Part shown: in pieces, positions 9,749 to 64,000 of the stretch
How positions within the stretch are numbered: the first letter of the stretch is position 1
Layout of the letters: each line of letters begins with the position of its first letter
From: an uncultured Desulfobacterales bacterium
GTDB taxonomy: Bacteria; Desulfobacterota; Desulfobacteria; Desulfobacterales; C00003060
Assembly (NCBI GenBank): GCA_964430705.1
Contig: CAYSGJ010000186.1
Coordinates: 892 to 64,891 of the forward strand
DNA length: 64,000 nt
Direction of reading: 5' to 3'
Translations under genes and position numbers: made by a program
Notes under the pieces: generated by a model
Database searches by the model: none
Told to the model about the DNA's origin: nothing
What the model saw: the letters and a program-made list of their open reading frames with translations, nothing else

Positions 9749-10276
9749 ATGAGCGAACAAAAAGACACCGCCAAATCCCCGGTGGTGGGAATTGTCATGG
9801 GAAGCGATTCAGACTGGGGCGTCATGGAAAAGGCGGCTGCGATGCTGAGGCAGCTCGGCATCCCGTTTGAGGCAACGGTGGCTTCCGCCCACCGCAGCCC
9901 GGACAGGACAGCCACCTATACCCGATCCGCCCGGTCCAGGGGACTCAAGGTAATTATCGCGGGGGCCGGCGCTGCAGCCCATCTGGCCGGGGCCATTGCG
10001 GCAGGGACAACCTTGCCGGTTATTGGTGTTCCCATTGATTCTTCGTCTCTTAAAGGCCTGGATGCCCTTTTGGCTACCGTCCAAATGCCCTCCGGCATTC
10101 CTGTGGCCACCATGGCTATCGGGACGGCGGGCGCAAAAAATGCCGCTGTATTGGCAGCGCAGATTCTGGGAACAAGTGACCCGGCCGTTGAAGCAAGACT
10201 CGAAAAATTCAAAGAGGATCTGGCCGGCCAGGTGGAAAAAAAAGCAGAAGCGCTGAAAGGGAATCTTTCCGCTTGA
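9749..10276 (+). CDS. purE: 5-(carboxyamino)imidazole ribonucleotide mutase
   Basis: VGIVMGSDSDWGVMEKAAAMLRQLGIPFEATVASAHRSPDRT. The start is chosen at MSEQKD. Confidence 0.92.
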   Translation: MSEQKDTAKSPVVGIVMGSDSDWGVMEKAAAMLRQLGIPFEATVASAHRSPDRTATYTRSARSRGLKVIIAGAGAAAHLAGAIAAGTTLPVIGVPIDSSSLKGLDALLATVQMPSGIPVATMAIGTAGAKNAAVLAAQILGTSDPAVEARLEKFKEDLAGQVEKKAEALKGNLSA

Positions 10277-10310
10277 CCCCCAAAAAAATATATGCTCTAG
10301 TAACCATTAA

Positions 10311-11700: not shown

Positions 11701-12738
11701 TTATATCAACAAAGGCTGGAAGGCTTCTCGGGACCTTTGATTCACTTCGATGGTTTTCGATCCTTCGGGGCTTTTTATGGAGACGCGAACAGGACGGCCA
11801 TTGTCGGTTTTGCTGTAGGCCGCGCAAAGGACGGCTGCCTCCCTTACCGTTTGTTCGGGAGCCCCACAAGGAATCAAGACTATGGGACCCGGCACGTCCG
11901 TCATACGCAGCGACACGTCCTTGGCGGGATTCAAGAAATGAAGGATCCGTTCGTTGTCTTTCTGGGTGCGACCTACAATCGCCTTGTGTGGACCGTGTAA
12001 ACGAAAATGGCGGCCGTGTTTCAATAATTCGAAATCCCGTTCCTCATAACTTTTTTTGCCGGCAAAAAGATCCTTGAGTCTTCTGGAAAAACCCACATCG
12101 GTAAGCAGACAGCCCCCGGCGGGGGCGGGATAGTCCATAACACCGAAGCTCTTGGCCAGTTCCATCTGCCGCTTTCGTCCCCGGCCGGAGATGTCCAGAA
12201 GACGGTCCCGATCCACCAGCCCGCGTCGTTCCGGGACGGTTTCAGGCAACAGCTTGGCGCTCAGCGGTCGAATAATGAGCCCTTCCACGCCGGAATGTTT
12301 TTCTACATACCTCAGAGACGGTCTGGTTTGGGACATAGGGCGCTGCCCCAAAACTTCGCCGGAAAAGAGAAAATCGAATCCTTTGTCTCTCATGACTTCG
12401 GCGGCAAGACGAAACATCAGGGCGTGGCAGTCCAGACAGGGGTTCATGTTGTTTCCATAGCCGCAGTGGGGATCCTTGAGCATTTCAAGGTAGACAGGGG
12501 TAATGTTTTTTACACTGAGAGGTATTCCCGTCGTCTGGGACGCTCGGCGGGCCTTCTCGGCACTGAAAAAGGGCGTTTCAAAGTTGATCCATTCCACCTC
12601 GATGCCCTGTTTTTTGAGCACAACGGCTGAAAGGATGCTGTCCAACCCGCCGGAGCACAGGCCCAGGGCCCGTACCGGTCGGGACTTTTTCGGCTCCAAA
12701 TGTTTTGTCAACGGCTCGTCATGGGAGGTGTGATTCAT
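11701..12738 (-). CDS. PP-loop ATP-pyrophosphatase (ThiI/MnmA-like tRNA thiolation-type enzyme)
   Basis: SGGxDS PP-loop (LGLCSGGLDSILSAVVL). It also has CLDCHALMF and SGEVLGQRPMSQ. Confidence 0.7.
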   Translation of the reverse strand: MNHTSHDEPLTKHLEPKKSRPVRALGLCSGGLDSILSAVVLKKQGIEVEWINFETPFFSAEKARRASQTTGIPLSVKNITPVYLEMLKDPHCGYGNNMNPCLDCHALMFRLAAEVMRDKGFDFLFSGEVLGQRPMSQTRPSLRYVEKHSGVEGLIIRPLSAKLLPETVPERRGLVDRDRLLDISGRGRKRQMELAKSFGVMDYPAPAGGCLLTDVGFSRRLKDLFAGKKSYEERDFELLKHGRHFRLHGPHKAIVGRTQKDNERILHFLNPAKDVSLRMTDVPGPIVLIPCGAPEQTVREAAVLCAAYSKTDNGRPVRVSIKSPEGSKTIEVNQRSREAFQPLLI

Positions 12739-13381
12739 GTCTCAACCTGTCAGCAAAAAACGTGTACAAACCATACTTACAACACTAAGGGAGGCCTACC
12801 CGGATGTCAAGACGGCCCTTAATTACAAAACCCCTCTGGAAATGCTGGTTGCCACCATCCTTTCCGCCCAATGCACGGACGTTCGGGTCAACGAGGTTAC
12901 CAAGACACTTTTTGAAAAGCTTCGAACAACCCGCGACTATGCACGGATATCTCTTCCTGAGTTGGAGGCACTGATTCGGCCAACGGGGTTCTTTCGCAAT
13001 AAGGCCAAAAACATCAAGGCGTGCTGCCGGACTCTGGTGGAAAAGCACGGGGGAAAGATCCCCGCCAACATGCAAGACCTGGTGGCGCTGCCCGGTATTG
13101 GACGAAAGACCGCCAACGTAGTTCTGGGAAGTGCCTTCGGGATTCCGGGAATCGTCGTGGACACTCACGTCAAAAGGATTTCTCAACGCATCGGACTCAC
13201 CAAAGAAAAGGATCCGGTCAAGATCGAGTTTGATCTTATGCCGATCATTCCGAAAAAGGACTGGATCGACTTCTCCCACCAGCTCATCTGGCACGGCAGG
13301 AAGGTGTGTACGGCCCGAAAGCCCGCGTGCCTGCAGTGTCCCCTCCTTGCGCTTTGCGATTACGGCCAAAAAAACGCTTGA
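12737..13381 (+). CDS. nth: Endonuclease III
   Basis: HhH-GPD core (LVALPGIGRKTANVVL) and a C-terminal 4Fe-4S loop (CTARKPACLQCPLLALC). Confidence 0.92.
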   Translation: MSQPVSKKRVQTILTTLREAYPDVKTALNYKTPLEMLVATILSAQCTDVRVNEVTKTLFEKLRTTRDYARISLPELEALIRPTGFFRNKAKNIKACCRTLVEKHGGKIPANMQDLVALPGIGRKTANVVLGSAFGIPGIVVDTHVKRISQRIGLTKEKDPVKIEFDLMPIIPKKDWIDFSHQLIWHGRKVCTARKPACLQCPLLALCDYGQKNA

Positions 13382-14311: not shown

Positions 14312-14523
14312 TGTCAACCTCCTCCTCGTTCGAAGCTCCAATTCGAATTGGGCTGTTAATTTACAACCGCACGATATCAGGAACCCGCTGGTATGACAAT
14401 GGAGAAATAACAATAGCGGCTGTGGTTAAAGGGAAATCCGGGTTATAGGCTGCAAAGGCAAGGCCCCAACCTTGGTGTGTGACTGCCCACCACATGCGTT
14501 GGGGTGCTGATGAACAATCCGGG

Positions 14524-16164
14524 TCAGTACTGAGCCAAACCCGCCAAATCACTGCCGTCCACGTCGCCGTCGCCGTCCAGGTCGCCTTCGCAAGGGTTGA
14601 AGTTCGAGCAACCCGCACGGCCGAGATGATCGGCCAGAAAGTGTAGGAAAAAGGCAAGGTCCCGGGCGTCCACATCCAGTGATTTCTCAAGATCGATAAT
14701 CCCGGATGTGGCATTCCGGCCGTTAAGCGCATCCACGACGCGAACCGAGTCCAGGATAATGTCCACAACGGAAAACGGGGACCATCCGGGAAACCGGGAC
14801 AGCAGCAGCGCCGTCAGGCCGGCCACATGAGGCGCAGCCATGGAGGTGCCGCTTTTGTCACAGTAGGTGTCGGCCAGGCAGGCGCTCAAAATGTTCACAC
14901 CGGGGGCCGACACGTCCACCCAGAGTCCATAATTGGAATTTTGCGGCTTTTTATCACTGCTGTCGGTGGATCCCACGGCAAGAATGAGCGGATCCGGATA
15001 ACCGGCGGGATAAAAGGGACCGGTAGACCCGGAATTGCCGGCCGCCGCGCAGATGATCACGCCGATTTCCGATGCATATTGAACGGCTTCTCGAATGACC
15101 GTATGGTCTGACGTACCGCCCCAACTAAGGTTGAGCACATGGGCGCCGTTGTCGGCGGCATAGCGAATGGCCTCGACCGCGTCGGCCACTTCCAGGACAC
15201 CCTGTCCAGCGTAATCTTTGTAACCGGCCCTGACGGCCATGATCCGGCAGTGCCAGACAACGCCGGCGATGCCCAGCCCGTTATCGGTCACCGCGCCGGC
15301 GATGCCGGCCACGTGAGTGCCGTGTCCCTGGCCGTCCATGGGCTCGTTGTCCCTTTCCAGGCAGTCGGGGTCTGAACAGCTGTTCTCGGTATCCACAAAA
15401 TCCCAGCCGATGTAATCGTCGACAAAGCCGTTTCCATCGTCATCGATGTCATTGTTGCCTGGAACCAGTTGGCCGGACCAGTCTTCGACCCAGTCCTCGC
15501 CCATGTTTTGCCAGATATTGCCCGCCAGGTCCGGGTGGGCGTAGTCGACGCCCGTGTCGATAACGGCGATCACCGCGTCGGAGACACCGGTTTCCAAGTC
15601 CCAGCCCGCTTCGGCGCCGATGTTTCTCGGCGCCCATTGTTCGTGGTACCTCGCATCATCGGGGATCTCCTGGGTGAAGAGCAGATAATTGGGCTCGGCA
15701 AACTCCACGGCGCTTTGTGCCCGAAACCATGCAGCGGCGTCGCGCAGCGGCCATCGGTCAGGCACGGAGATTACGAAATAATTCGCCTTTTTGCTCTGCT
15801 TCCGGACCGCGACGCCTTTGTCGGCAAGGGCTTGTTTGATCCCGGACCGCGCGGCGTCGCGCTTGAAACGGACTAGAAGTTCACCGGGGACAAAGCGGGC
15901 CTGTTCTGCCCAATTGATCGTCGCCCCGGCGTCCGGTCGGGTTTGGCCGTCGGCCCGAGGTACAAACACGGTGCGTTGTTTTGCAAAAGGCCCCCGGGCG
16001 TTTTTATCCTCCGATCGGAGTTGCCCGGCCGCGACCACCTTTGCGGGCTCGGAGGAGGGGTTGCCGGATTGTCCACAACAGCGCTCTGCGCCTTGCCAAA
16101 GACAAAGCGTGACGCCGATTCCAGCTACAAGGGCTGTTAATCTTATCCTTTTTCCCGATTTCAC
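14524..16164 (-). CDS. Secreted S8 (subtilisin-like) serine peptidase with a C-terminal dockerin/EF-hand-like repeat
   Basis: GTG start and a signal peptide. The catalytic motifs are VIDTGVDYAHPDL, GHGTHVAGI and SGTSMAAPHVAG. The tail is CEGDLDGDGDVDGSDLAGLAQY. Confidence 0.88.
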   Translation of the reverse strand: MKSGKRIRLTALVAGIGVTLCLWQGAERCCGQSGNPSSEPAKVVAAGQLRSEDKNARGPFAKQRTVFVPRADGQTRPDAGATINWAEQARFVPGELLVRFKRDAARSGIKQALADKGVAVRKQSKKANYFVISVPDRWPLRDAAAWFRAQSAVEFAEPNYLLFTQEIPDDARYHEQWAPRNIGAEAGWDLETGVSDAVIAVIDTGVDYAHPDLAGNIWQNMGEDWVEDWSGQLVPGNNDIDDDGNGFVDDYIGWDFVDTENSCSDPDCLERDNEPMDGQGHGTHVAGIAGAVTDNGLGIAGVVWHCRIMAVRAGYKDYAGQGVLEVADAVEAIRYAADNGAHVLNLSWGGTSDHTVIREAVQYASEIGVIICAAAGNSGSTGPFYPAGYPDPLILAVGSTDSSDKKPQNSNYGLWVDVSAPGVNILSACLADTYCDKSGTSMAAPHVAGLTALLLSRFPGWSPFSVVDIILDSVRVVDALNGRNATSGIIDLEKSLDVDARDLAFFLHFLADHLGRAGCSNFNPCEGDLDGDGDVDGSDLAGLAQY

Positions 16165-16913
16165 GAGAACTCACCCTTTAGAAATTAATAATGCGGTTAT
16201 CCAGAATACTCATGTTTATGGTACAACAAGGCCGATGGAGATCGAGACAAAAGCCGGGCAACTGTCTGAGCCGTTTAGACCGCGTTTTGAGCGGCCGTAA
16301 CTCGGTCTAGTCGACACCCCATAAGAGCCTGAATGAATAGACTTTCTATTATGCCCATTCAAAGGCCGCTTTTACGCGGCCTTGACGGCGAGTTTTGCCC
16401 GGCTGGAGGATTGATGTCCATTGGCCGACCAAAACCCTGACTGGAGCTTTGTATATAACCGCAATTAATAATTTCCAAAAAGATTCGGCAAACACCGTGC
16501 CAGAAGTTCAAAACGCCGGATATGCGGTCGGTTCTCGTTCGGCAGTCGGTCCGTTTTTCCGGCTTTCTCAAGACAAAGGCTGAAGGTAAAGAATCTAAAA
16601 TCAGGCGGTTATGCGATTGCCCGGTTTTGTCCTTACAAGGAACCGGGGGCGATGTCTATCGAAAACCGTCTCTTGGCGGCAAGGCCGACAAAGCCTGTAC
16701 GGCACCAAAAGGCCCTGAAAAAAAGGCAATTGGTTGCCCTTCATGGCAACAAATTGCCCATAAAGAAACCGATGAAATACGAAAACCAATCGGCCGGCTG
16801 AACAACAATCTTGGGCAATCATTGCCCAACACGCCCCCTCCTTCCCGGGGCAGGGAGGGGCGGGGCTGCGCACCGTTGGCTCGGAAACAGCGCCATTTTC
16901 TGGTTGTTCCTGC

Positions 16914-17669
16914 CTATTTGGGTTCGGAAATGCCGTGCAGACCGAAGCAGGCTTTCGCATTCCGGGTGGTTTGATCGGCGATCTCCGCGGCGCTCCTTTT
17001 TTTCACCCTGGCGGCTTCTTTCAAGGTCAGCTGCACATGGACGGGGCGCGCATGGAGGTCTCCGTATATCACGGGCGAGTCGGTTTCCAGGAGGAGATTG
17101 GATAAGGGAACAACCCGAATCGCCTCTTGGTGATATGGATTGAAAAGAAGTGCAGGAGAAGCGGACATGTAATAGCCTTGTGCGGCGATCGACGGGATAA
17201 GTTCAACAGGTCCGCTGTACCAGTGAAAGACCACCTTCGTAAGGCCCGCGTCTTTCACCATCTGAAAAGCCCTTTTGTGGGAATATCGGCAATGCAGTAT
17301 GATGGGCTTGTCGTGTTTTTTGGCCAGCGCGATGAGTTGAAGAAAAACGGCTTTTTGAATTTTTTTCTTGACCTTGGCTTTGTAGTCCAGGCCAACCTCT
17401 CCCAGGGCCACACACCGGCCGAGGTTTTGATCGATATAGGCAAGTGTCTCGTCGTGGTTTTCCGTCTTGAGGCGCCAAGGATGATACCCGATTGCAGGAA
17501 AGACAAATCCGGGGTTTTGGGATGCCGTTTCCAGGGCTACGGCATTCGATGCAATGTCCTGGCCTATTGCCACGATAGCCAAGACCCCGCCCAGGCGGGC
17601 GTCGTCCACGGCTTTGTGCGGATCATCCAGTTCTTCAAAATGGGCGTGGGTGTCGATGACGAAGTACAT
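16914..17669 (-). CDS. tatD: TatD-family metal-dependent hydrolase
   Basis: MYFVIDTHAHFEEL...ILHCRYSHKRAF...LLLETDSP. Confidence 0.88.
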   Translation of the reverse strand: MYFVIDTHAHFEELDDPHKAVDDARLGGVLAIVAIGQDIASNAVALETASQNPGFVFPAIGYHPWRLKTENHDETLAYIDQNLGRCVALGEVGLDYKAKVKKKIQKAVFLQLIALAKKHDKPIILHCRYSHKRAFQMVKDAGLTKVVFHWYSGPVELIPSIAAQGYYMSASPALLFNPYHQEAIRVVPLSNLLLETDSPVIYGDLHARPVHVQLTLKEAARVKKRSAAEIADQTTRNAKACFGLHGISEPK

Positions 17670-18109: not shown

Positions 18110-18431
18110 GGAAGCGTTGGCCTTTTTTCTGCAGACATGCATACGGTGTTTTAGATAGCCGAATCGATTTCAGTTTGCCATCCTTTTCTGTGATTTACAA
18201 CCCCTTATGTTTTTCAGCAAGGTAAGCGGGAAGGAGTTTCCTTGACACGGTTTGGTATTTGGCGGACACTTTTTAGGTCATCACGGCATCAAAAATTGCC
18301 AAAAAAAAGACAAAGCGTTTTTGGGCTATGAGTCCCCGGGGGAACGGGCGTGGACAGAACGTGACTTCCGGGCGGGTTTTCAAACGCCTTCACGCGCGGT
18401 ATCCAAGGGGCACTGTCGACAGGCCAAGACA

Positions 18432-53636: not shown

Positions 53637-55301
53637 GTGTCTATGAAAATCGCTTTGGCCCAAGTTAATCCGACCATCGGGGATTTCGAAAAAAACACAG
53701 AGACGATCAGGGCCTTTGCCGGCCGAGCCGGAGCGTTGGGCTGTGATCTGGTCGTGTTTCCCGAGCTTGCTGTTTCCGGCTATCCGCCGAGGGATCTATT
53801 GGAACGCAAGGACTTTGTGCAAGGCAACATCGGATACCTTCACAATCTTGTAAATTCGGTGGAAGGGATCGGCGTCATCTGCGGGTTCGTGGACGAAAAC
53901 CCCCATGACACGGGATATCCGCTTCACAACTCGGCCGTCCTTTTTGAATCCGGCAAAATCCTGCATCAAGTCCACAAAAGGCTGCTTCCCGATTACGATG
54001 TCTTTGACGAAAGCAGGTATTTCGAACCGGGCATAGATTGTTCTTCATTCCTTTATAAAGGCTATAACCTGGGGTTGACCATCTGTGAAGATATTTGGAA
54101 CGACCGAAGCCTTTTTCCCCGCAGGCTTTATCCCGTAGATCCCGTGGAGCGCATGGTTCAGGACGGCGCAAACCTCATCATCAACATCTCATCGTCTCCG
54201 TATTATAGAGGAAAACAGGAATTCAAGCGGAAGCTGTTCGCGGGCATTACCGGCAAATATCGCGTTCCACTGGTATATGTCAACCAGGTGGGAGGAAACG
54301 ACAGCCTGCTTTTCGACGGCTTGAGCGTGGTCTTTGATTCGGCGGGTCGCATGGTTGCCGGGGCCGTAGATTTTGAGGAGGACCTGGTGGTTTGGGATAC
54401 CGACACCGGCACAGGAGAAATGCATTCGGTGTCGGAAACGCCGGATCGGTCCGTATTGAAAGCACTCATCGTGGGCACGCGGGATTATGTCCAAAAATGC
54501 GGGTTCTCGAAGGCGGTGGTGGGCTTGAGCGGCGGCGTCGATTCAGCGCTGACCGCCGCCATCGCCGTTCGGGCTCTGGGAAAAGAACATGTCACGGGCA
54601 TGTTCATGCCCTCTCAGTTCACTGCGCGGGAAAGCCGCGAGGATGCCAAGTCTCTTGCGGACAATTTGGGGATAACCTGTTTGCAATTTCCTATTTCAGG
54701 CATCTTCGATGGTTTTCTGGAGGCATTGTCCCCTGTTTTTCAACAGATCGAGACGGAAATCACGGGCCAAAACATACAGGCTCGGATTCGGGGCGCACTC
54801 CTCATGGCCTTTTCCAACAAGGCTGGGGCACTGCTTCTTTCGACGGGAAACAAGTCTGAACTCGCCGTCGGTTACTGCACGTTGTATGGGGATATGAGTG
54901 GCGGTCTCTCTGTTATTGCCGATGTGCCCAAGATGATGGTCTACGAACTGGCCCGCCTCATCAATGAAAAAGGGGAAGTAATTCCCCCACGCATTTTGGA
55001 AAAACCGCCTTCCGCGGAGTTGAAGCCTGATCAGCGGGATCAAGACGACCTGCCCCCTTACGAGGTCCTTGACGGCATCCTGGCCGCCTACATTGAGGAA
55101 AACAAGACCGAGGAAGAGATCATTGCCGAGGGATTTGACGAAGCCGTCGTGAAGGAGACGATTTGCAGGATCCATCGCAACGAGCACAAGCGTTATCAAG
55201 CCCCGCCGGGGTTAAAGGTAACCACCAAGTCCTTCGGGTCCGGCAGGCGCTACCCCATGGCCCAACGATATCTTCCCGGATGTTATTACGACACTGCGTG
55301 A
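53637..55301 (+). CDS. nadE: Glutamine-dependent NAD+ synthetase (CN-hydrolase + NAD synthase domains)
   Basis: MKIALAQVNPTIGDFEKN...VVFPELAVSGYP...LSGGVDSALTAA. Confidence 0.92.
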   Translation: MSMKIALAQVNPTIGDFEKNTETIRAFAGRAGALGCDLVVFPELAVSGYPPRDLLERKDFVQGNIGYLHNLVNSVEGIGVICGFVDENPHDTGYPLHNSAVLFESGKILHQVHKRLLPDYDVFDESRYFEPGIDCSSFLYKGYNLGLTICEDIWNDRSLFPRRLYPVDPVERMVQDGANLIINISSSPYYRGKQEFKRKLFAGITGKYRVPLVYVNQVGGNDSLLFDGLSVVFDSAGRMVAGAVDFEEDLVVWDTDTGTGEMHSVSETPDRSVLKALIVGTRDYVQKCGFSKAVVGLSGGVDSALTAAIAVRALGKEHVTGMFMPSQFTARESREDAKSLADNLGITCLQFPISGIFDGFLEALSPVFQQIETEITGQNIQARIRGALLMAFSNKAGALLLSTGNKSELAVGYCTLYGDMSGGLSVIADVPKMMVYELARLINEKGEVIPPRILEKPPSAELKPDQRDQDDLPPYEVLDGILAAYIEENKTEEEIIAEGFDEAVVKETICRIHRNEHKRYQAPPGLKVTTKSFGSGRRYPMAQRYLPGCYYDTA

Positions 55302-55471
55302 CCCCGTTGCCCCAAGGTTTATTGGCCTTTTTCGGGAGACCGGGGGGCTTGCCGGCGGCGCTTTACCCAAATTTGTTGCATTTCCCCGAAATTTACGACG
55401 AAAACGTAATTTTTTGAGGCGACTTACATCGCCATGTTTCCTAACTAATTAATATTTAGAGAAAATTTCCC

Positions 55472-55486
55472 TGGCATATATCTTGC
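55472..55486 (+). promoter_or_regulatory. Sigma-54 promoter of the split glutamate synthase operon
   Basis: TGGCAT-ATATC-TTGCC lies 55 nt upstream of the GTG at 55541. Confidence 0.7.
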
Positions 55487-55540
55487 CTCGCATTGAATTC
55501 GCGGATTCGATTCCGCCTATAACCAGCAAGGAGATGCACC

Positions 55541-56671
55541 GTGTGCCGTTTATTCGCAATAACCAGTGAAGTGCCGCAGTCCCCCATGTTGGCCATGCAG
55601 GCCCTCAATGCCATGAAGGAAGGACATGATGGATCGGGAGTGGGTCTTTTTTTGACCGATCTTGGCGGACCGTTTGAGGAACTGAAAGGAGCTCCCATCC
55701 TTTCGGGCATTTTTACGAACAAAGGGATTCGGCGCCTGGACGAATTCATGATGGAAGTGGGGTTTATGACGAAATACAAACTTTCCATCAAGGTACCGAA
55801 GAACGCTCCGCCCGGCGTTCCCAAACGGGACATGTACCTGATTCGCGCCTATGAATACCCTGAGACCTGGGATGGATTGAAGGACGGAGAGCTGCAAGAA
55901 CGCCTTATGCTGATTCGTCTTCAGCTCCGAAAAATGGGCGAAGACAGCGGGGATATGATCGTCTTCAGCTTCTGGCCTGATGTGATCATGATCAAAGAAA
56001 TCGGCGATCCCTTGACCGTGGCGGAATTTCTTCAACTGGATCGCGACGAGCTTCAGGCCCGGATCATGATGGCCCAGGGCAGGCAAAACACCAACTACGC
56101 CATCAATTTGTATGCCTGTCATCCCTTTTTTATCCAGGGGATTGCCACCATGACAAACGGGGAAAACACGGCTTTTGTGCCCATTCGGGAATACCTCGGT
56201 TCCCGGGGTTTTCCCGGATATACGGGATACCAATCGGACTCGGAAGTTTTCACTCACATTCTGCATTTCATGCTCAATGAATTGGGCCTGGGCCTGGACG
56301 CCTACAAGCATGTGATTACCCCCCTTCAGGACGGGGATTTGGCGCGCCATCCCGACGGTCCTTTTCTCAAACACCTGAAGCATACCTGCCGGCAACTGAC
56401 CATCGACGGGCCGAACTGCGTGATCGGGTGTCTTCCCGACAACACTCTGTTCATGGCGCAGGACCGAAAAAAACTCAGGCCCGGCGTAACAGGCGGCAGG
56501 CCGGGGCTTTATGCCATGAGTTCGGAGATGTGCGGTCTGGATGCGGCCATTCCCGATCGCGACAAGCGTCTGGACTTTCAGCCCATGCACCTGGACACGG
56601 CCGTTGTCCGACAGGATCGAAAAGAGGTGACCATATGTCGTCAAACGGAAAAATTGTCCCTTCCACATTAA
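55541..56671 (+). CDS. Glutamate synthase amidotransferase subunit (class II Ntn GATase, GltB domain 1 as a separate protein)
   Basis: A GTG start gives M-CRLFAITSE, with the Cys1 nucleophile. An AAGGAG RBS precedes it. 376 aa. Confidence 0.85.
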   Translation: MCRLFAITSEVPQSPMLAMQALNAMKEGHDGSGVGLFLTDLGGPFEELKGAPILSGIFTNKGIRRLDEFMMEVGFMTKYKLSIKVPKNAPPGVPKRDMYLIRAYEYPETWDGLKDGELQERLMLIRLQLRKMGEDSGDMIVFSFWPDVIMIKEIGDPLTVAEFLQLDRDELQARIMMAQGRQNTNYAINLYACHPFFIQGIATMTNGENTAFVPIREYLGSRGFPGYTGYQSDSEVFTHILHFMLNELGLGLDAYKHVITPLQDGDLARHPDGPFLKHLKHTCRQLTIDGPNCVIGCLPDNTLFMAQDRKKLRPGVTGGRPGLYAMSSEMCGLDAAIPDRDKRLDFQPMHLDTAVVRQDRKEVTICRQTEKLSLPH

Positions 56672-58269
56672 GCATCAAAGACCTGCCCTGGCAGATCCTG
56701 TGGCGCAAAGACCGGTGCACGCTTTGCGGCCGCTGCACGGCCGTTTGCCCGGTCAGCGCTATTGAACTGGGGGTGCACCGGAAGCGGGCGGTCCAAACCG
56801 CGATGGGCCTTGATACCCCGCCGTCCAATGTCTTTGAAGTCTACCACGGCATCCGCCAGAAGACGGACCCGGCGTATGCCTGCGTGGGTTGCGCCATGTG
56901 CAGTCTGGTTTGTCCCAACGATGCTATTATTCCCTTGCGAAGCGATGAAGCGGACAAGCTCAGGTACCATGTCAACCGCGGCGGGCAACCACGACGCAGG
57001 GGCGGCCGGAGAAATGCCGTGGGCGGGATTCTGGATCAGATCAAATTCATCCGCATTTCCATGCTCACCGATCCGGCCCTGGATGCCGGAAGACATGAAT
57101 TCGAACTCCGAACCCTTCTGGGGCGAATCCTGCCGCCCAAAGAAAACCTGGAACTGCAAAAAACGCAGGGATGGATCCCCCCGGTGCGGGAGATCTATCC
57201 GCTGGTCATCGGCGCCATGTCTTTCGGCGCCCTTTCTCCCAATATGTGGGAGGGCCTCCAGATGGGGGTGGCCTATCTGAATGAAGAGCTGGGGATGCCG
57301 GTTCGCATGTGCACGGGGGAAGGCGGGTGCCCTCCCAGACTGCTGCGGTCCCGGTTCATCAAGTACGTGATCCTGCAGATCGCCAGCGGCTATTTCGGGT
57401 GGGACGAGATTATTCATGCCATCCCCGAGATGAAGGAAGACCCGTGCGCCATAGAGATCAAGTACGGCCAGGGGGCCAAGCCGGGCGACGGCGGACTGCT
57501 CATGTGGCATAAGGTTAATAAGTTGATTGCTGCTATCCGGGGGGTTCCCGCGGGGGTGAATCTGCCCAGCCCGCCGACCCATCAGACGAAATATTCCATC
57601 GAAGAAGCGGTGGCCAAGATGATCCAGTCCATGTACATGGCCTGGGGGTTTCGGGTGCCGGTGTATCCCAAGATATCCGCGACAACGACCGCGACATCGG
57701 TGCTCAACAACCTGACGCGCAATCCCTATGCCGCGGGCCTGGCCATCGACGGGGAAGACGGCGGTACCGGCGCCGCCTACAACGTGTCCATGAATCACAT
57801 GGGCCATCCGATCGCAAGCAGTCTTCGGGACTGCTATCTCAACCTGGTCAAGGTGGGCAAACAAAACGAGATCCCGCTGTTCGCCGGCGGGGGCGTCGGC
57901 AAGCAGGGCAACCTGGCGGCCAACGCGGCGGCACTTATCATGCTCGGGGCCAGCGGGATTCAGGTCGGCAAGTACATCATGCAGGCCGCCGCCGGATGCC
58001 TGGGCTCCGAATCCGATCGGTGCAACATCTGCAACATCGGGCTGTGTCCCAAGGGGATTACCTCCCAGGACCCCCGGCTTTACCGCCGGCTCGACCCCGA
58101 ACAGGTCGCCGAACGGCTCGTGGACGTTTATCTTGCCTTTGATACGGAACTGAAAAAGATCCTCGCGCCCCTGGGCCGATCCACCTCGCTTCCCATCGGC
58201 ATGTCCGACGCCGTCGGCATCAACGACAAGGCGGCCGCAGACCGTCTTCAGATCAGATATGTGGTGTAA
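56635..58269 (+). CDS. Glutamate synthase FMN subunit (GltB domain 2) with an N-terminal 2x[4Fe-4S] ferredoxin domain
   Basis: The start is chosen at MSSNGKIVPS, a 37-nt overlap with the previous gene. Motifs are CTLCGRCTAVCP, CVGCAMCSLVCP, IKYGQGAKPG and DGEDGGTGAA. Confidence 0.85.
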   Translation: MSSNGKIVPSTLSIKDLPWQILWRKDRCTLCGRCTAVCPVSAIELGVHRKRAVQTAMGLDTPPSNVFEVYHGIRQKTDPAYACVGCAMCSLVCPNDAIIPLRSDEADKLRYHVNRGGQPRRRGGRRNAVGGILDQIKFIRISMLTDPALDAGRHEFELRTLLGRILPPKENLELQKTQGWIPPVREIYPLVIGAMSFGALSPNMWEGLQMGVAYLNEELGMPVRMCTGEGGCPPRLLRSRFIKYVILQIASGYFGWDEIIHAIPEMKEDPCAIEIKYGQGAKPGDGGLLMWHKVNKLIAAIRGVPAGVNLPSPPTHQTKYSIEEAVAKMIQSMYMAWGFRVPVYPKISATTTATSVLNNLTRNPYAAGLAIDGEDGGTGAAYNVSMNHMGHPIASSLRDCYLNLVKVGKQNEIPLFAGGGVGKQGNLAANAAALIMLGASGIQVGKYIMQAAAGCLGSESDRCNICNIGLCPKGITSQDPRLYRRLDPEQVAERLVDVYLAFDTELKKILAPLGRSTSLPIGMSDAVGINDKAAADRLQIRYVV

Positions 58270-58272
58270 TTC

Positions 58273-60621
58273 ATGATGCAAAACAACGCTACAAACAACC
58301 AACAGACCATTCGAATCGCCGGGGTAGAACACGGACGGCGCCTGGAATCCCGGGTGCTGGAAGAACGCATTCAGCAAGCTGTTCAGGATGGCGCCCGGCA
58401 TCTGGAGATCGAGGCCTTCGGCCAGCATGGCATCGGCGGAAGGCTGTGGCGCGCGGGCGATGAATCCGTGCATGTCGTCATCAACGGCTCTTCCGGGCAG
58501 CGCGTGGGATCCAAGGGGTTTGCCAACACCCGCATCGAGGTGATGGGACCTGCGTCCGACGACGTGGGATGGCTCAATGCCGGCGCTGAAATCGTGGTCC
58601 ACGGCCACGCCGCCAACGGGGCGGCCAATGCCATGGCCCAGGGCAAGATCTACGTGGGGGGCAATGTCGGCGCCCGGGCCATGACCATGACCAAGCACAA
58701 TCCGCGCTTTGAGCCCCCCGAGCTGTGGGTCCTGGGCTCTGCGGGCGACTATTTTGCTGAGTTCATGGCGGGCGGGATCGCCGTCATCTGCGGATTCGAA
58801 GCGCAGGATCCCGAGAACGTTCTGGGCTACCGCGCCTGCGTGGGCATGGTCGGCGGCAGGGTATTTTTCCGGGGACCCCATCAGGGATTCAGCCAGGCGG
58901 ACGCCAAGCTTGTGCCCATCAGCGATGAGGACTGGCAGTGGCTGACGGAAGGCCTCCGCGGTTTTCTCGAAAAGATCCGCCGCCCGGACATCCTTGAAAA
59001 CCTTTCGCGCAGCGAAGATTGGCAGCTCTTGGCAGCCCGAAGTCCCTGGGAAAAGGCCGCCATACCCAGAAGATCCATGGCGGCGTTCAGCAAGGAAGTC
59101 TGGGAGAAGGAACTGGGCGCCGGGGGGTTGATCGGTGATTTGACGGACCTGGACCGGTCTGCCGTTTCAGTGATCCCAACCGGAGAGATGCGCCGTTTCG
59201 TACCGGTTTGGGAAAACCGCAAATACACGCCGCCTTGTGAGGCCGGTTGTCCTACGGGCATGCCGGTTCAGGAGCGGTGGCGCCTGATTCGCGAAGGCCG
59301 CGTGGATGAGGCCGTGGACCTGGCCCTGGCGTATACGCCTTTTCCGGCCACGGTGTGCGGTTACCTGTGCCCCAATCTGTGCATGCAAAGTTGCACCCGC
59401 CATACGGCGGGCATGCCGCCGGTGGACGTGAAACAGCTCGGCCAGGCCAGCGCGGGCGCCAAATTGCCCCCATTGCCCTCCTTGTCCGGCAAGCGCGTTG
59501 CCGTGATCGGCGGGGGGCCGGCCGGCATTTCCCTGGCCTGGCAAATGCGGGAAAAAGAACACGAGGCGGTCGTGTTTGATACGGAAAAGAGCCTCGGCGG
59601 CAAGATGGAGTCGGTAATTCCCGATTCCCGAATCCCCAAAGAAGTGCTCGGCAGCGAACTGGCGCGCATCCGCGACATCCTGCCTCACGTACACCTGCAA
59701 CAACGACTTGTCGGGCAGGATGTGGAACAACTCAAGGCGGATTATGATTTTGTCGTCATAGCCGTGGGGGCGCAAAAACCCCGGATCATCCCCGTGCCGG
59801 GAAAGGAAAAAATGATTCCGGCTATGGAGTTCCTGCGGCAAAGCAAGCAGAACCAGGCCCGGGTGGGAAAGCGCATGGTGATCATCGGCGCGGGCAACGT
59901 GGGCTGCGATGTGGCCACCGAGGCCCATCGCCTGGGCGCCCAGGATATTTTGCTCATCGACGTGCAGGAACCGGCCTCTTTCGGGGCGGAAAGAAAAGCC
60001 GCGGAGGCCGTGGGCGCGAGATTCCGGTGGCCACTTTTTACCAAGGCCGTTACGGATGAAGGCGTGGAGCTGACTACCGGCGAGGTGCTTGCCGCCGACA
60101 CGGTCATCATTTCCATCGGGGATCAGCCGGATCTGGATTTTCTTCCCGACTCCGTGGCCACGGAGCGTGGATTTATTGTGGTCAATGACCTGAACCAGAC
60201 CACCGACTCGCAGATCTTTGCCGTTGGAGACGCCGTCAAGCCGGGCCTTCTTACAGACGCCATCGGCGCCGGCAGAAAGGCTGCTGCGGCCATATCCGAT
60301 ATCTTTGCGGGCAAGCGGCCCAAAGGGGATACCCGCCGGATAATCGATTACTCCCGGATCAAGCTCGAGTACTTTGATCCCAGGATGATCGGCTTCAACG
60401 GCATTCAAAGCTGCGCCGGGCAGTGCTCTTCCTGCGGCGCGTGCCGCGATTGCGGCATCTGCGTGGAGATCTGCCCCCAGGCGGCGATTTCCAAGCAGGA
60501 AAAGGACGACGACGATTTTGAGCTGGTGGTGGATCCGGAAAAATGCATCGGCTGCGGGTTTTGCGCCGCGGCGTGTCCCTGCGGTATCTGGACCCTGGTG
60601 GAAAACGAGCCTATCGGGTGA
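58273..60621 (+). CDS. Fusion of the GltB C-terminal GXGXG domain, a GltD-like FAD/NAD(P)H oxidoreductase and a C-terminal 2x[4Fe-4S] ferredoxin
   Basis: 782 aa. Motifs are [86 protein letters not shown] and [12 protein letters not shown]. Confidence 0.85.
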
Positions 60622-61310
60622 TGGCTTTTTGCCGGGAAGACATACTGCCATAGCCATTGACGATCTGCATTCGGATATTTTCGTGCAAGGGCGTATGGTA
60701 GATAAACCCGGCCACACCCCCTTGCATCGTCTGCTTCATGGAGTCTTTCCCTTGCCTCCAAATGCGCTTCCAACTCCTGCTTGACACTGTCAGGCAGGAG
60801 CGTCACGCGATCTTTCATGCCCTTGCCATTGCGAACCACGATCTGGTGGTTACCAAAATCAACATCCTTGACCCGAAGGCGCAGACATTCCATCAGCCGA
60901 AGTCCTGCTCCATAAAGGAGCTGTACGATCAACCTGTGAATATCGAAAAGTGCTGCGATTGTCTTTCTCGTTTCCTCCCTGGTCAATACCGTCGGTATTC
61001 GTCTTCGTCTTTTGGCTCGCACTGCCTGAATGTCATTGCCCAGATCTGTGCGCAACACTTGTTTATAAAGAAACAGCAAAGCATTGAACGCCTGATTCTG
61101 CGTGGAGGGGGCCACTTTCAGATCGGTGGCCAGATACGACAAAAAATTTTCAATCTGCTCCGTGCCCATATCCTTGGGATGACGTTTTTCGTGATACAGG
61201 ATAAACCGTCTTATCCAAGAGACGTATGATTGTTCTGTCCGCCGGGGATAGTGCTTCGTCCGGACGACCTCACGCACTTGATCCAGTAGCTTTTTCGGCC
61301 GTTTCTGCAT
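60622..61310 (-). pseudogene. intI: Integron integrase IntI, 3'-truncated (catalytic box II / Tyr region missing)
   Basis: [40 protein letters not shown]...[22 protein letters not shown]. The IntI-specific patch [24 protein letters not shown] is present. Similarity stops at about 60622. The rest of ORF 60405..61367 is antisense read-through of the glutamate synthase 3' end. Confidence 0.8.
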
Positions 61311-61522
61311 TTTTTTATTGAATTCCCGAGGCTTATAATATACAAAAACATTGGATTTTTCTCCCAAAACGCCATGCTGTGACGCGCCTTACTTCGGGAT
61401 GAAGGACACCGCCAATTTTCACGTCGAAAGTTCTGTCAAGAGACAATCGGTGGTGTACATTTCTTTGGCTTGATTTTTTGTTTAGCGTATTTTTGGACAG
61501 ATGGCAAGCCCTGTGATGATAT

Positions 61523-61551
61523 TTGACGAAGTCCGTTTTTTATCCCAATAT
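61523..61551 (+). promoter_or_regulatory. Candidate cassette promoter (Pc-like)
   Basis: TTGACG (61523-28), a 17-nt spacer, then CAATAT (61546-51), oriented toward the cassettes. Confidence 0.35.
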
Positions 61552-61637
61552 TCACAATATGCGGAAATGAGTCCGCTTTTGATGCCCAATATGGGGTGTT
61601 ATGCAGAATTAGAAATTCCGTATATTAATAGTTAAGG
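61531..61637 (+). other. attI-like region
   Basis: An imperfect direct repeat is GTCCGTTTTTTATCCCAATAT (61531) and GTCCGCTTTTGATGCCCAATAT (61571). GTTATGCAG lies at 61598. The terminal core is GTTAAGG (61631-37), 15 nt before the first cassette ORF. Confidence 0.5.
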
Positions 61638-61652
61638 CATAGAGGTAATGTC

Positions 61653-62015
61653 ATGAAAAAATCAATATTCTGTTTTTCTATCATTCTTTTATTTTCTTTG
61701 GGTAATCCTGTTGCAGCATTGGACATTAAAGTAGGGGATCGTTTTCATATAACAGGCTGCGAAAATGGCGAGCTCATGGTCCCTGTGGTTAATATGTGGG
61801 ATAAACCAGGTGGCACTATGAAAGGTGCTAAAGTAGTTGGTAAATTATCTGGAGATGGCAGAGAAGAGCAAGGATTAAAATGTCAGGGTGCAATAGTAGA
61901 GTTATTAGAAATAAAAAATGTTGATGGCAGAGTCTTTTTAAAAGTTAAATCGGTGGTTAATTCCAATGTAGGTTGGATAACTGATAGCTTTGTTGGTCGA
62001 AAAACAAAAAAATAA
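61653..62015 (+). CDS. Cassette 1: small secreted protein (signal peptide, SH3b-like C-terminus?)
   Basis: MKKSIFCFSIILLFSLGNPVAA... and ...VGWITDSFVG. The coding sequence is markedly AT-rich compared with its neighbours. Confidence 0.65.
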   Translation: MKKSIFCFSIILLFSLGNPVAALDIKVGDRFHITGCENGELMVPVVNMWDKPGGTMKGAKVVGKLSGDGREEQGLKCQGAIVELLEIKNVDGRVFLKVKSVVNSNVGWITDSFVGRKTKK

Positions 62016-62028
62016 AAGACAAAAAATG

Positions 62029-62159
62029 CCTTAACGACAAAATCAACTCAGACCTGGCTACTCTCTTGCCAGATCGGAATTGTGTGCAACATGGAATCAA
62101 TTGATCTTGGCAAATATTTAAAATTCTAAACCGCCAGGCTGGTTATTTAAGCGTTATGC
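62029..62159 (+). other. attC site of cassette 1 (~131 bp)
   Basis: R'' is CCTTAAC (62029-35) and R' is GTTATGC (62153-59). The internal arms are imperfect: TTGCCAGATC pairs with GATCtTGGCAA (one extrahelical T), and CCTGGC pairs with GCCAGG. Confidence 0.6.
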
Positions 62160-62177
62160 ATCAAAGGAGAGTTCTGC

Positions 62178-62594
62178 ATGAGGCCGAGGATAAGCATGAT
62201 TACCCTGGGCGTCAGGGATATGGGAAAGTCGGTTCACTTCTATGAGCAGGGTCTTGGCCTGCCGAGGATGGATTCGCCGCCAGAGGTAGCGTTCTTTACG
62301 CTCAATGGTAGCTGGCTCGGGCTATATGGCCGCGAGTTGTTGGCGGAAGATGCGGGGGTACCTGCCGACGGTACTGGCTTCGCCGGATTCACGATTGCGC
62401 ATAACGTGGACTCGGAGGCGGCAGTTGACGAACTCTTGGACCAGGCTGTCTCAGCAGGCGCCAAATTGGTGAAGCCGGCCCAGAAGGTATTCTGGGGTGG
62501 GTACTCCGGCTACTTTGCTGATCCAGACGGCTATCTGTGGGAAGTCGCGCATAACCCCCTCTTTTGGGTTGGTCCGAAGGATGAAGATGCATAA
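62178..62594 (+). CDS. Cassette 2: VOC (glyoxalase/bleomycin-resistance/dioxygenase) family protein
   Basis: MITLGVRDMGKSVHFYEQGLGL...FADPDGYLWEVAHNP, with an AAGGAG RBS. Confidence 0.85.
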   Translation: MRPRISMITLGVRDMGKSVHFYEQGLGLPRMDSPPEVAFFTLNGSWLGLYGRELLAEDAGVPADGTGFAGFTIAHNVDSEAAVDELLDQAVSAGAKLVKPAQKVFWGGYSGYFADPDGYLWEVAHNPLFWVGPKDEDA

Positions 62595-62647
62595 CAAAAC
62601 ACTGGTGCGAACGCAAAAAGCCGCGCCGCACAGTTCGGTCGTTTGGA
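62589..62647 (+). other. attC site of cassette 2 (59 bp)
   Basis: R'' is GCATAAC (62589-95) and overlaps the stop codon. It is the exact complement of GTTATGC at the cassette start. R' is GTTTGGA (62641-47). Inner arms are CGAAC/GTTCG. Confidence 0.6.
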
Positions 62648-62688
62648 GAAACCACTGAATTGATTTTGCTCGGTGGAAATGGTAGGTT

Positions 62689-62886
62689 GTGTATATGGAT
62701 AGGGAAAAAACAGCCAAATACAGAATGACAGACCATTGGGATGACGATTATGTTCCCGGTACCCCCGAATACCGCATTGGCCTCGTATGGCCGCTAACCC
62801 AAGAAATTGCATCTCTAAGCGCAAAACACGATGTTGAACGAAGACTACAGAGACATGTTACATGCCTTGTCCGCCGAGAAGGTTAG
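62689..62886 (+). CDS. Cassette 3, gene 1: small protein partnered with the nucleotidyltransferase (antitoxin-like?)
   Basis: 65 aa ending in ...DVERRLQRHVTCLVRREG. It overlaps the next ORF by 56 nt. Confidence 0.45.
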   Translation: MYMDREKTAKYRMTDHWDDDYVPGTPEYRIGLVWPLTQEIASLSAKHDVERRLQRHVTCLVRREG

Positions 62887-63322
62887 ATTCATCCTTGTCG
62901 GCGCCTATGCGCTGGCTGCCCACGGTTATTTAAGGGCAACAATGGACATAGATATTTGGGTCATGCCGTCCCCTCGGAACGCCAAAGCCGTGTTAAGGGC
63001 ATTGCGACGTTTCGGAGCCCCACTACACAATCTTACCAAGGAAGACCTTCAAAAAGATGGCACCATATTTCAGATAGGAGTCGCTCCAAGACGAATTGAC
63101 ATTATCACCGCCGCATCCGGCCTCAACTTTGAGGAAGTATTTCAAAATTCGATTTCGATAAACATAGAAGGACTTGAGGTCCACATCCCTTCAATTGATG
63201 ATTTGATCCGAAACAAAAAAGCGACAGGGAGAACTAAGGATTTGGCCGACGTTGAAGCCCTCGAATCCGTCAAAAACTCCGAACACGACGCTGCAGGCGA
63301 CGCCAAAAAGCCGCGTGCCTGA
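62831..63322 (+). CDS. Cassette 3, gene 2: Pol-beta-fold nucleotidyltransferase-like protein
   Basis: FILVGAYALAAHGYLRATMDIDIWV fits the hG[GS]-x(9-13)-DhDh NTase pattern. 163 aa. Confidence 0.65.
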   Translation: MLNEDYRDMLHALSAEKVRFILVGAYALAAHGYLRATMDIDIWVMPSPRNAKAVLRALRRFGAPLHNLTKEDLQKDGTIFQIGVAPRRIDIITAASGLNFEEVFQNSISINIEGLEVHIPSIDDLIRNKKATGRTKDLADVEALESVKNSEHDAAGDAKKPRA

Positions 63323-63336
63323 GCTTTTCGTTAGGG
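63278..63336 (+). other. attC site of cassette 3 (59 bp)
   Basis: R'' is TCCGAAC (63278-84) and pairs with G+TTTGGA at the cassette start. R' is GTTAGGG (63330-36). It shares the core CAAAAAGCCGCG with attC 2. Confidence 0.55.
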
Positions 63337-63359
63337 TCGCAAAAGGGAGGTCCACGACA

Positions 63360-64000
63360 TTGAAGTACGAAGAGGCAGTACAAAGCATCTGGCGACACTC
63401 GGAAACCGCACTGTCCGATGATGCGGCGCTGCTGAAAGAAATCGTCCGTTATGCCACGCTGGCTCCGTCCGGGCACAACACACAATGCTGGCGGTTTCGG
63501 CTCGATAGGCGCTCCATTGCGATCCTGCCGGATTTGTCTCGGCGTACCCCGGTAGTCGACCCAGACGACCATCATCTCTATGTCTCGTTAGGATGTGCTG
63601 CCGAGAACCTCATCCTGGCGGCAAAGGCATTCGGCTTCATGGGCAATCCGGAATTCAGTCCCTCTAACGGTGGATTAATAACAATTGGGCTGGAACGATC
63701 GAAGGCGGAAGGATCGCCTCTGTTCAAAGCAATTCCCCATCGCCAATGCACACGAACCGACTTTGATGGTAAACGGCTGGCTCCGGAAGAGCTGCGACAG
63801 CTCGAAGCAGCGGGAGCCGGGAATGGCGTTGCGGTCATCCTGTTGACCGAACGCGAAGCCATGGAAAAGGTTCTTGAATATGTGGTTCAGGGCAACACGA
63901 TGCAGATCAACAACCCGGCTTTTGTGAGTGAGCTGGAGAGTTGGATTCGCTTTAGTGATGGCGAAGCGATCCGAACCGGTGATGGGTTGACCGCTAGATC
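63360..64000 (+). CDS. Cassette 4: nitroreductase-family FMN oxidoreductase (partial, runs off the right edge)
   Basis: Not in the ORF track because no stop lies in the window. My translation from the TTG at 63360 (GGGAGG RBS 9 nt upstream) reads KYEEAVQSIWRHSETALSDDAALLKEIVRYATLAPSGHNTQCWRFRL...PDDHHLYVSLGCAAENLILAA. Confidence 0.75.
   Translation, partial: MKYEEAVQSIWRHSETALSDDAALLKEIVRYATLAPSGHNTQCWRFRLDRRSIAILPDLSRRTPVVDPDDHHLYVSLGCAAENLILAAKAFGFMGNPEFSPSNGGLITIGLERSKAEGSPLFKAIPHRQCTRTDFDGKRLAPEELRQLEAAGAGNGVAVILLTEREAMEKVLEYVVQGNTMQINNPAFVSELESWIRFSDGEAIRTGDGLTAR

Follow-up and report, generated by a model that had tools for sequence, protein, structure and literature searches.

A putative chromosomal pseudo-integron with a 3'-deleted integrase gene beside a glutamate-synthase-like operon of an uncultured Desulfobacterota bacterium

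The 64-kb stretch of DNA analysed here (hereafter the window, in whose numbering strands and coordinates are given) carries toward its right end a locus that is very probably a genuine chromosomal integron of an uncultured Desulfobacterota bacterium of the sulfate-reducer type, the recombinase gene of which has been destroyed by a deletion of 308 bp. The element comprises a remnant of the integron integrase gene intI on the minus strand, an attI region, and an array of three complete gene cassettes and the start of a fourth on the plus strand, and it is oriented tail-to-tail with a split glutamate-synthase-like operon. An initial annotation of the sequence had described a canonical intI/attI/cassette-attC layout. 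The layout itself is borne out by the analysis, but the word canonical was an overstatement in view of the 3' deletion in the integrase gene.

The minus-strand open reading frame (ORF) at 60405-61367 contains both peptide motifs, an integron-integrase-specific patch and a box, that the initial annotation had quoted for it. In an NCBIfam search, the ORF scored 297.3 bits with the "integron integrase" model TIGR02249 (cutoff 265), versus 63.8 bits with the XerC model (cutoff 335) and 60 bits with the XerD model (cutoff 330), below these Xer equivalog cutoffs; across the XerA, XerC and XerD models the scores lay between 60 and 94 bits. The best solved relative of the intI fragment is VchIntIA/IntI4 of Vibrio cholerae (2A3V, E = 1e-56), and a XerC-like protein among the solved structures reaches only E = 6e-17. 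The fragment shares 48% identity with IntI1 and 59% with a cyanobacterial plasmid IntI, and metagenomic homologues labelled integron integrase number in the thousands, several of them from metagenome-assembled genomes (MAGs) of Deltaproteobacteria, Anaerolineae and Brocadia. Pfam recognises the N-terminal SAM-like domain and, of the catalytic domain, only positions 10-105 of 172. Besides the SAM-like domain, the remnant retains box I and the beta-hairpin Lys, and it still has the IntI-specific patch, the additional domain that is characteristic of the IntI clade. The profile scores and the match to 2A3V thus support a grouping of the remnant with IntI rather than with XerC/XerD, the latter being one of the outcomes that would have refuted the initial annotation.

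The TIGR02249 profile is matched over positions 1-223 of 315 only, and positions 224-315 are absent. The closest homologue, P0001, is a full-length protein of 320 aa with 96% identity over residues 1-229, and the alignment with it places the true start of intI at the ATG at 61310. The remnant accordingly covers codons 1-229 (60622-61310, minus strand), as delimited by the P0001 alignment. Integrase homology stops at 60622-60624, where the window protein leaves all IntI after ...WQYVFPAKS. The ORF then continues into a read-through tail of 72 codons (60405-60621, minus strand), which shows no integrase homology and runs antisense to the 3' end of a neighbouring gene for a 782-aa protein. According to the P0001 alignment, the missing C-terminal part (the last ~90 codons) held the HxxR motif, the second His/Trp and the catalytic Tyr, and the lost P0001 residues include ...GH...IYTHVL; the window intI is therefore left without an intact R-K-H-x-x-R-H/W-Y set. 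No C-terminal integrase part was found anywhere in the window by tblastn with the full-length protein, and the 64 kb contain no second intI or other integrase-like sequence. Since the HxxR motif, the His/Trp and the Tyr nucleophile have been deleted, the integrase is predicted to be dead and the platform would be unable to run itself. Judged from its sequence, the window integrase is a catalytically dead, 3'-deleted remnant, and the element is a pseudo-integron.

P0001 is encoded on the ENA scaffold ZHEN22-1_1321 (locus L014), where its gene lies tail-to-tail with an orthologue of the 782-aa gene at a distance of 34 bp. BLAST and direct comparison with this sister contig place the deletion junction at 60619-60627. 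Window 53641-60633 is 92% identical to L014 and 60615-61640 is 95% identical, with 308 bp extra in L014 between the two, and window 60615-60633 aligns twice in L014rc, at 9960-9978 and at 10268-10286. The deletion took the 3' end of intI (~90 codons and the stop codon) together with the 34-bp spacer, and it ends at the stop codon of the neighbouring gene (60619-60621). The junction reads ...CCTATCGGGTGATGGC|TTTTTGCCGGG..., in which the microhomology GGC is common to both deletion ends. The identical deletion is present in three independent metagenome assemblies whose contigs span the junction (L001, L002 and L003), and it is thus not an assembly artefact; all five contigs of the population (L001-L005) are 99.7-99.9% identical to the window. 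The surviving 229 codons contain neither a stop codon nor a frameshift and differ from the sister gene by 15 synonymous and 9 non-synonymous codon differences, which suggests that intI was under constraint until fairly recently and that its loss is fairly recent.

The attI site, recognised by homology with L014, and the presumed intI/cassette promoter region occupy 61311-61631. Its 321 bp contain 39% GC compared with 53% in the whole window, in good agreement with the AT-rich attI-like region of 320 bp proposed in the initial annotation. The homology between the window and L014 (95%) terminates at ...ATTAATAGTTA/...CCGTATATTAATAGTTA (ATAGTTA), past which the window reads AGGCATAGAGG... and L014 reads GGCATCAGGAA.... 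The break falls at the G|TT of a GTTA core, exactly where attI x attC recombination would place it, and different first cassettes lie beyond it; on this comparative evidence the recombination crossover is placed between G61631 and T61632. Inside attI, two imperfect direct repeats of ~40 nt each (61530-61609, plus strand; repeat families D2 and D5) were found, the second of which contains GTTATGC. By analogy with DR1/DR2 of attI1, they are possibly integrase-binding repeats. Two sigma-70-like promoter-like sites, at 61494-61523 and 61523-61552, face the cassettes. The region also contains a patch of 11 substitutions within 53 bp (61327-61379), just upstream of the intI start codon, which holds 11 of the 22 differences between the window and L001-L003 (otherwise 99.8% identical). 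Here the window alone deviates, L014 agreeing with L001-L003, and one pair of changes (AGC..GCT to AAT..ATT) has a compensatory look. The patch may have arisen by gene conversion from a paralogous platform, through chimeric assembly or as variation in a regulatory site.

In order to find attC sites, models were built from genuine class 1 integron sites of six plasmids, the training cassettes of which included aadA1, aadA2, aadA16, blaOXA-101, aac(6')-Ib and aac(6')-Il as well as dfrA14, dfrA16, dfrA27 and arr-3. A MAFFT alignment of full-length attC sites misaligned the L boxes and was set aside, and a model of the 58-60-nt core ("mini") sites, R1, was used first instead; R2 was derived from the full sites re-aligned with R1. 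A third model, R3, was built solely from seven sites of the lineage itself, namely six L001 sites, of which three fall within the window, and that of the L014 cassette. Scanning of the whole 64 kb on both strands with R2, with filters off, placed three predicted attC sites among the five best matches in the window, all on the plus strand and at the 3' ends of cassette ORFs. attC1 (62029-62159, 131 nt) ranks third with 10.8 bits (match span 62028-62159) and scores 40.3 bits with R3. attC2 (62588-62647, 60 nt) ranks first with 13.6 bits (62589-62644) and scores 15.2 bits with R1 and 51.6 bits with R3, and attC3 (63278-63336, 59 nt) ranks fourth with 9.1 bits over the same span and scores 11.7 and 58.5 bits, respectively. 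By our own estimate, the chance that three of the five matches fall in a single-strand interval of 1.4 kb out of 128 kb is ~1e-5, and such clustering is thus unlikely by chance. The imperfect palindromes that the initial annotation had seen at the cassette ends are therefore recovered as real attC-type sites by a model trained on class 1 integrons. They lie on one strand, less than 4 kb apart and each after an ORF, the arrangement asked of an array with at least two sites.

Application of R2 to L001 yielded three matches, all on the plus strand: 17523-17640 scored 32.4 bits (E = 2e-6), 14505-14635 scored 29.8 bits (E = 1e-5), and the one at 12688-12741 was weaker. In the reverse direction, R3 retrieved every one of the 10 genuine attC sites of class 1 that four plasmid loci contain, each on its correct strand, with E values from 3e-11 to 1.4e-3 and all ahead of any false match. 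It further added three intergenic plus-strand sites of L001, at 16395-16475, 17113-17172 and 18269-18332. In the alignment of the seven lineage sites, 95% of the aligned base-pair positions are standard pairs, versus 30-44% with slid partners, and 11 of the 21 pairs have changes on both sides, i.e. compensatory changes, which are concentrated in the L-box stem. A search of Rfam gave no attC-like match, and its three weak matches in the region are noise.

Inspection by eye reveals a general layout of a 7-nt R'' box, a 5-nt spacer, three base pairs, a bulge, a stem interrupted by another bulge that often falls within ...GAC..., a spacer of 5-6 nt and GTT. The parts of attC1 are R'' CCTTAAC, L'' AAT-C-AAC...CAG-A-CCTGGC and R' GTTATGC, with extra-helical bases at the canonical positions. 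Its bottom strand folds better than shuffled sequence (z = -3.76, none of 200 shuffles being as good), which is also clearly the case for some of the L001 sites. In attC2, R'' GCATAAC overlaps the stop codon of the cassette gene and is followed by a 5-nt spacer, the 3-bp stem ACT/AGT, a bulged G, the stem GTGCG/CGCAC, a 6-nt spacer and R' GTTTGGA. attC3 starts within the 3' end of its cassette ORF, with R'' TCCGAAC, the 3-bp stem GCT/AGC, a bulged G, the stem CAGGC/GCCTG and R' GTTAGGG. The attC sites across the array are heterogeneous in sequence and range from 56 to 132 nt. attC2 and attC3 have in common the loop motif GC(C)AAAAAGCCGCG (direct-repeat family D1), which is found in four attC-type sites altogether, at window 62612-62630 and 63303-63320 and at L001 12706-12720 and 16033-16051; the GCAAAAAGCCGCG loop motif is confined to attC2, attC3 and two others. 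Some of the cassettes may thus share an origin. The copy at L001 16033 appears to be a left half-site only. A perfect 13-bp palindrome at L001 15283-15343 looks attC-like and was rejected, as it has neither a model match nor a match to the start of its cassette.

A circular cassette is cut between G and TT, and the 5' bases that follow the TT derive from its own attC. If circles have been inserted, the start of a cassette should therefore complement its own R'' and not that of its neighbour. Cassette 1 starts with GTTAAGGCA, to which its R'' TGCCTTAAC is complementary at every base (6/6), and the same holds for the start GTTATGCATC and the R'' GATGCATAAC of cassette 2 (6/6). Cassette 3 (GTTTGGAG against CTCCGAAC) and cassette 4 (GTTAGG against CCTAAC) each score 4/6. 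The score compares the six bases after G-TT with the six bases before AAC in the R'' of the same cassette. Across 11 cassettes of L001, the own-start matches are 6, 6, 4, 4, 1, 5, 1, 0, 3, 4 and 6 of 6, with a mean of 3.64/6, whereas the physically adjacent R' averages 1.45 and unrelated pairs average 1.95; the low scorers are intervals with remnants of insertion sequences (IS) or degenerate sites. The observed total was reached by 9 of 100,000 permutations for the 11 cassettes and by 75 of 100,000 for the first three alone. Matching footprints were also seen in the L014 cassette (GTTAGGCAT/ATGCCTAAC) and in a cassette of the unrelated contigs L052/L055 (GTTAGGTGG/CCACCTAAC). We take this complementarity between start and R'' to be the footprint of circular cassettes inserted at attI.

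The cassettes delimited in this way agree with the four plus-strand units of the initial annotation, each with an ORF 20-50 nt after a GTTRRRY-like site: the measured distances are 22, 25, 48 and 30 nt past the G of GTTAAGG (61631), GTTATGC (62153), GTTTGGA (62641) and GTTAGGG (63330), respectively. The GC content of the cassettes ranges from 36 to 57%. Cassette 1 (61632-62153, 522 bp, 36% GC) carries an ORF at 61653-62015 for a protein of 120 aa without a Pfam, NCBIfam or PADLOC match, the N-terminus of which looks signal-peptide-like by eye. Cassette 2 (62154-62641, 488 bp, 57% GC) encodes a 138-aa Glyoxalase/VOC protein (62178-62594; PF00903, 71.6 bits), for which the models of the Fos family remain far below their cutoffs. 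Cassette 3 (62642-63330, 689 bp, 48% GC) encodes a 163-aa DUF6036 nucleotidyltransferase (NTase) at 62831-63322 (PF19502, 34 bits) with weak AbiEii matches in PADLOC, which returned nothing for the cassettes other than the NTase. A paralogous NTase cassette, 39% identical, lies further along the array. Cassette 4 begins at 63331 and is cut by the window end at 64000. Its ORF, from the TTG at 63360, encodes a 338-aa Acg-family FMN nitroreductase-like protein (NF047509, 192.8 bits on the partial protein); L001 contains the full gene, and the cassette ends with its 61-nt attC about 436 bp past the window end (L001 11552-11612). The VOC enzyme, NTase and nitroreductase of the initial annotation are hence confirmed, and the secreted small protein is so only by the look of its N-terminus. 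The second gene of the proposed two-gene NTase module, in contrast, finds no backing: the 65-aa ORF at 62689-62886, which overlaps the NTase start, is doubtful, is called in only some assemblies, has no family match and does not resemble the small upstream ORF of the paralogous NTase cassette. Among the cassettes, no gene for resistance was recognised.

The near-identical metagenome contig L001 prolongs the array by ~7 kb, supplying the rightward extension from which the initial annotation had hoped to learn its size. At least 10 model-supported attC sites are spread over ~9.6 kb before the contig ends. What it encodes in this extension is in part typical of integrons, namely VapB/PIN, PemK/MazE (on the opposite strand) and small unknown ORFs; the second NTase, a flavodoxin-like reductase and DUF6883/DUF4926 are found there as well. 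Between attC4 and the next attC, L001 11607-12739 (~440-1570 bp past the right end of the window) has no intact plus-strand gene. Its minus strand contains what is left of a tyrosine recombinase (a SAM-like domain with E = 4e-4 together with a box-I-like motif) and the C-terminus of a Y2/IS91-type transposase (PF04986, E = 0.004), and represents a decayed insertion sequence inside the array. A second intI considered at L001 12352-12713 was accordingly rejected, being a decayed tyrosine recombinase beside the Y2/IS91-like transposase remnant. An IS200/RayT-like Y1 transposase gene is located at L001 13513-14055 (PF01797, E = 3e-4, just below the cutoff). The invariant GTT of the crossover core reads GCT in two of the model-supported attC sites (L001 16469 and 17169). 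Such cores would permanently fuse neighbouring cassettes, which fits relaxed selection after integrase loss, and together with the IS91-like and IS200/RayT-like genes they are early signs of array decay.

In L014, a full-length 320-aa intI sits downstream of the same glutamine synthetase/NAD synthase/glutamate-synthase-like cluster and is followed by the same attI and then by a different cassette with its own matching R''. This cassette of L014 (a 230-aa unknown protein and a 61-nt attC) is a single one, with R' GTTGGGC. The comparison with sister genomes that the initial annotation envisaged thus finds two lineages that share intI, attI and the flanking operon and diverge exactly at the attI crossover. 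On the minus strand of L014 1-8017, a type I restriction-modification methylase gene follows 31 nt after GTTGGGC, and hsdS, an AAA_13 ATPase gene and RhuM lie past it, with no convincing attC closing the block; it is either chromosomal backbone past a one-cassette array or an unusually large cassette.

An orthologue of the 782-aa protein, at no more than 81% amino-acid identity, is present in 35 species-representative genomes, nearly all of which bear the label Desulfobacterota or Deltaproteobacteria, and in none of them does an IntI-like sequence lie within 10 kb of the gene. At this locus, the integron thus appears to be confined to a shallow lineage made up of the window population and L014. 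In terms of the location shared by a sedentary chromosomal integron (SCI), the position is common to the window lineage and L014 (92-95% DNA identity), with no intI within 10 kb in the 35 distant representatives. Gene order is consequently not strictly conserved, the cassette of L014 being different and the distant relatives lacking an adjacent integrase. Neither an empty site nor the far array boundary could be located among the distant relatives: their downstream neighbours differ from one another, and the genes on the array side of L014 are absent from them. A metagenome scan with the 18-nt attI end detected one further related platform, six other matches being due to chance. In this platform (L052 775-792 and L055 7030-7047, from a JGI metagenome), a 98-bp stretch is 80% identical to the cassette-proximal end of attI and is followed by a further, different cassette whose R'' matches its start. 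The opposite flank contains no integrase gene over 7 kb, and response regulator and HU/IHF-like genes are present there instead. L052/L055 may be a platform of the same family from which intI has been wholly lost.

The sequences show directly what the integrase is and that it is truncated, how the attC sites are built, where the cassettes begin and end, and that the sister genome has other cassettes; these observations can be accommodated in a simple scheme. Formerly, IntI would have acted on circular cassettes, recombining their attC sites, folded as single strands, with attI at G|TT; each newcomer would have been stacked beside a promoter in the attI/intI region, from which the cassettes may have been expressed. 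The 308-bp deletion would then have removed the C-terminal catalytic part of intI and the spacer up to the neighbour's stop codon. What persists now would be a string of accessory genes, operon-like, frozen and in slow decay, except where an integrase encoded elsewhere acts on it in trans. The array is, in other words, probably frozen at present.

Several points weigh against this interpretation. With R2, the attC sites of the window are individually insignificant (E = 0.45-6.3), and attC2 (z = +0.26) and attC3 (z = -1.0) fold no better than shuffled sequence. The R3 results and the pair counts are partly circular, given that the sites were selected and aligned by R2, and the models built here are distinct from the curated model of IntegronFinder. 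The number of promoter-like sites in attI equals the expectation for shuffled sequence, and the cassette promoter Pc is not located thereby. A single sister contig with an intact intI at the locus was found. Finally, cassette order is identical in L001-L005 and no turnover is seen within the population; such uniformity is what a dead integrase predicts, and turnover is hence documented only between lineages. The weakness of the short sites with the independent model R2 and their unremarkable thermodynamics would suit a locus that is no integron at all, in which the remnant of a phage- or Xer-type recombinase lies beside an accessory or toxin-antitoxin island and terminator hairpins mimic attC. 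We give this hardly any credence: an integron integrase is indicated both by the IntI-specific profile and by the closest solved structure, and the canonical L'' bulges, the reciprocal detection of class 1 attC sites, the complementarity of cassette starts to their own R'' and the homology break exactly at G|TT are those of an integron.

The state of the integrase could be read differently. The ORF is open over a normal length (320 aa from the TTG at 61367) and passes the TIGR02249 cutoff, as would be the case for a complete integron whose active integrase shuffles its own array. This, too, is extremely improbable, since the last 72 codons are antisense read-through without integrase homology, profile positions 224-315 with HxxR, His/Trp and the Tyr nucleophile are absent, and no C-terminal part was found in the window. 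The retained SAM-like domain, box I and IntI patch, which reads extra-helical bases, allow for another function, in which the truncated 229-codon part with its 72-residue tail is expressed as a catalytically dead attC/attI-binding protein that is dominant-negative toward incoming integrases. If true, such a remnant would actively lock an advantageous array in place, but we hold this to be very doubtful. That the array is still dynamic, served in trans by a second intact integrase in the genome or by a mobile integron, is unlikely, though worth a serious thought. attI is intact, as is the GTT core of most R' boxes, gene conversion from a paralogous platform could account for the 11 substitutions at 61327-61379, more than one-fifth of integron-bearing lineages have more than one intI (PMC2426708), and half of the integrase-less attC clusters (CALIN) are in genomes that encode IntI elsewhere (PMC4889954). 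On the other hand, the 64-kb window contains no second intI, the five population contigs share one cassette order, and the two downstream attC sites with GCT for GTT and the decayed IS91-like and IS200-like genes suggest relaxed maintenance. A pseudo-integron with a probably frozen array remains our preferred interpretation.

The gene into whose 3' end the intI reading frame now runs (58273-60621, plus strand) lies outside the integron and encodes the 782-aa subunit with GXGXG, GltD-like and ferredoxin parts (matches to PF07992, PF01493 and PF14691). It is the last gene of the split glutamate-synthase-like operon, for which PF01645 as well as the GXGXG and GltD-like domains were matched, in line with the glutamate synthase operon that the initial annotation had placed beside the integron. 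The neighbours of intI thus include glutamine synthetase, NAD synthase and glutamate synthase genes, and an orthologue of the same 782-aa gene adjoins intI in L014. At window 59518-59559, L001 differs by ten clustered substitutions and one indel, which split the 782-aa gene into two gene calls in L001 alone. These differences are most likely a local sequencing or assembly error in L001.

The loss of integrases from integrons is well known. About one third of genomic intI genes are pseudogenes, often with intact orthologues in close relatives (Nemergut 2008, PMC2426708). intI pseudogenes adjoin 15 of 279 integrase-less attC clusters, and integrase loss and IS activity have been proposed as routes from a complete integron to such clusters (Cury 2016, PMC4889954). 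The present element closely fits this picture of integron decay, as a pseudo-integron caught soon after the loss of its integrase; it is a well-known kind of element, and the current understanding of integrons is left unchanged by it. Its value is that of a well-documented environmental example, in which two close lineages have one platform at one chromosomal site, the integrase being intact in one and bearing a precisely mapped 3' deletion in the other, with cassettes that differ from the attI crossover onward. The contrast between the lineages would show that the platform was once active, and would illustrate how a complete integron may plausibly take its first step toward CALIN. The locus further supplies attC sites and cassettes from Desulfobacterota for the benchmarking of detection tools.

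Among known systems, the pseudo-integrons, such as those of Xanthomonas beside ilvD, and attC clusters that have an intI pseudogene close by (PMC2426708, PMC4889954) resemble the present element in their fixed site by a housekeeping operon, in an intI that one lineage has lost the use of while a close relative keeps it intact, and in the retention of mostly unknown, non-resistance cassettes with IS remnants in the array. They differ from it in host and neighbourhood, here an uncultured Desulfobacterota bacterium and a split glutamate-synthase-like operon, and in the nature of the lesion: neither a frameshift nor a stop codon inactivates intI here, but the clean deletion of 308 bp from its 3' end up to the stop codon of the neighbouring gene. 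The sedentary chromosomal integrons of Vibrio (VchIntIA/VCR) have an integrase of the same family, divergent orientation of intI and cassettes, a heterogeneous cassette GC content and toxin-antitoxin cassettes, represented here by PemK/MazE and VapBC in the extension. In contrast to the far larger Vibrio superintegron with its near-identical VCR, the attC sites described here are heterogeneous (56-132 nt), the integrase is predicted to be dead, and at least 10-12 sites are seen, short of the large array of similar attC sites by which an SCI is defined. The class 1 mobile integrons exhibit the same attC architecture (7-nt R box, ~5-nt spacer, 3-bp stem with bulge, second bulge) and the same crossover at G|TT, and models trained on either set of attC sites find the other. 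The element nevertheless does not belong to the mobile integrons of classes 1-5: identity of its integrase with IntI1 is only 48%, its neighbours are chromosomal housekeeping genes, and, unlike class 1, it lacks a Tn402/Tn21 context, a 3' conserved segment and any recognised resistance gene.

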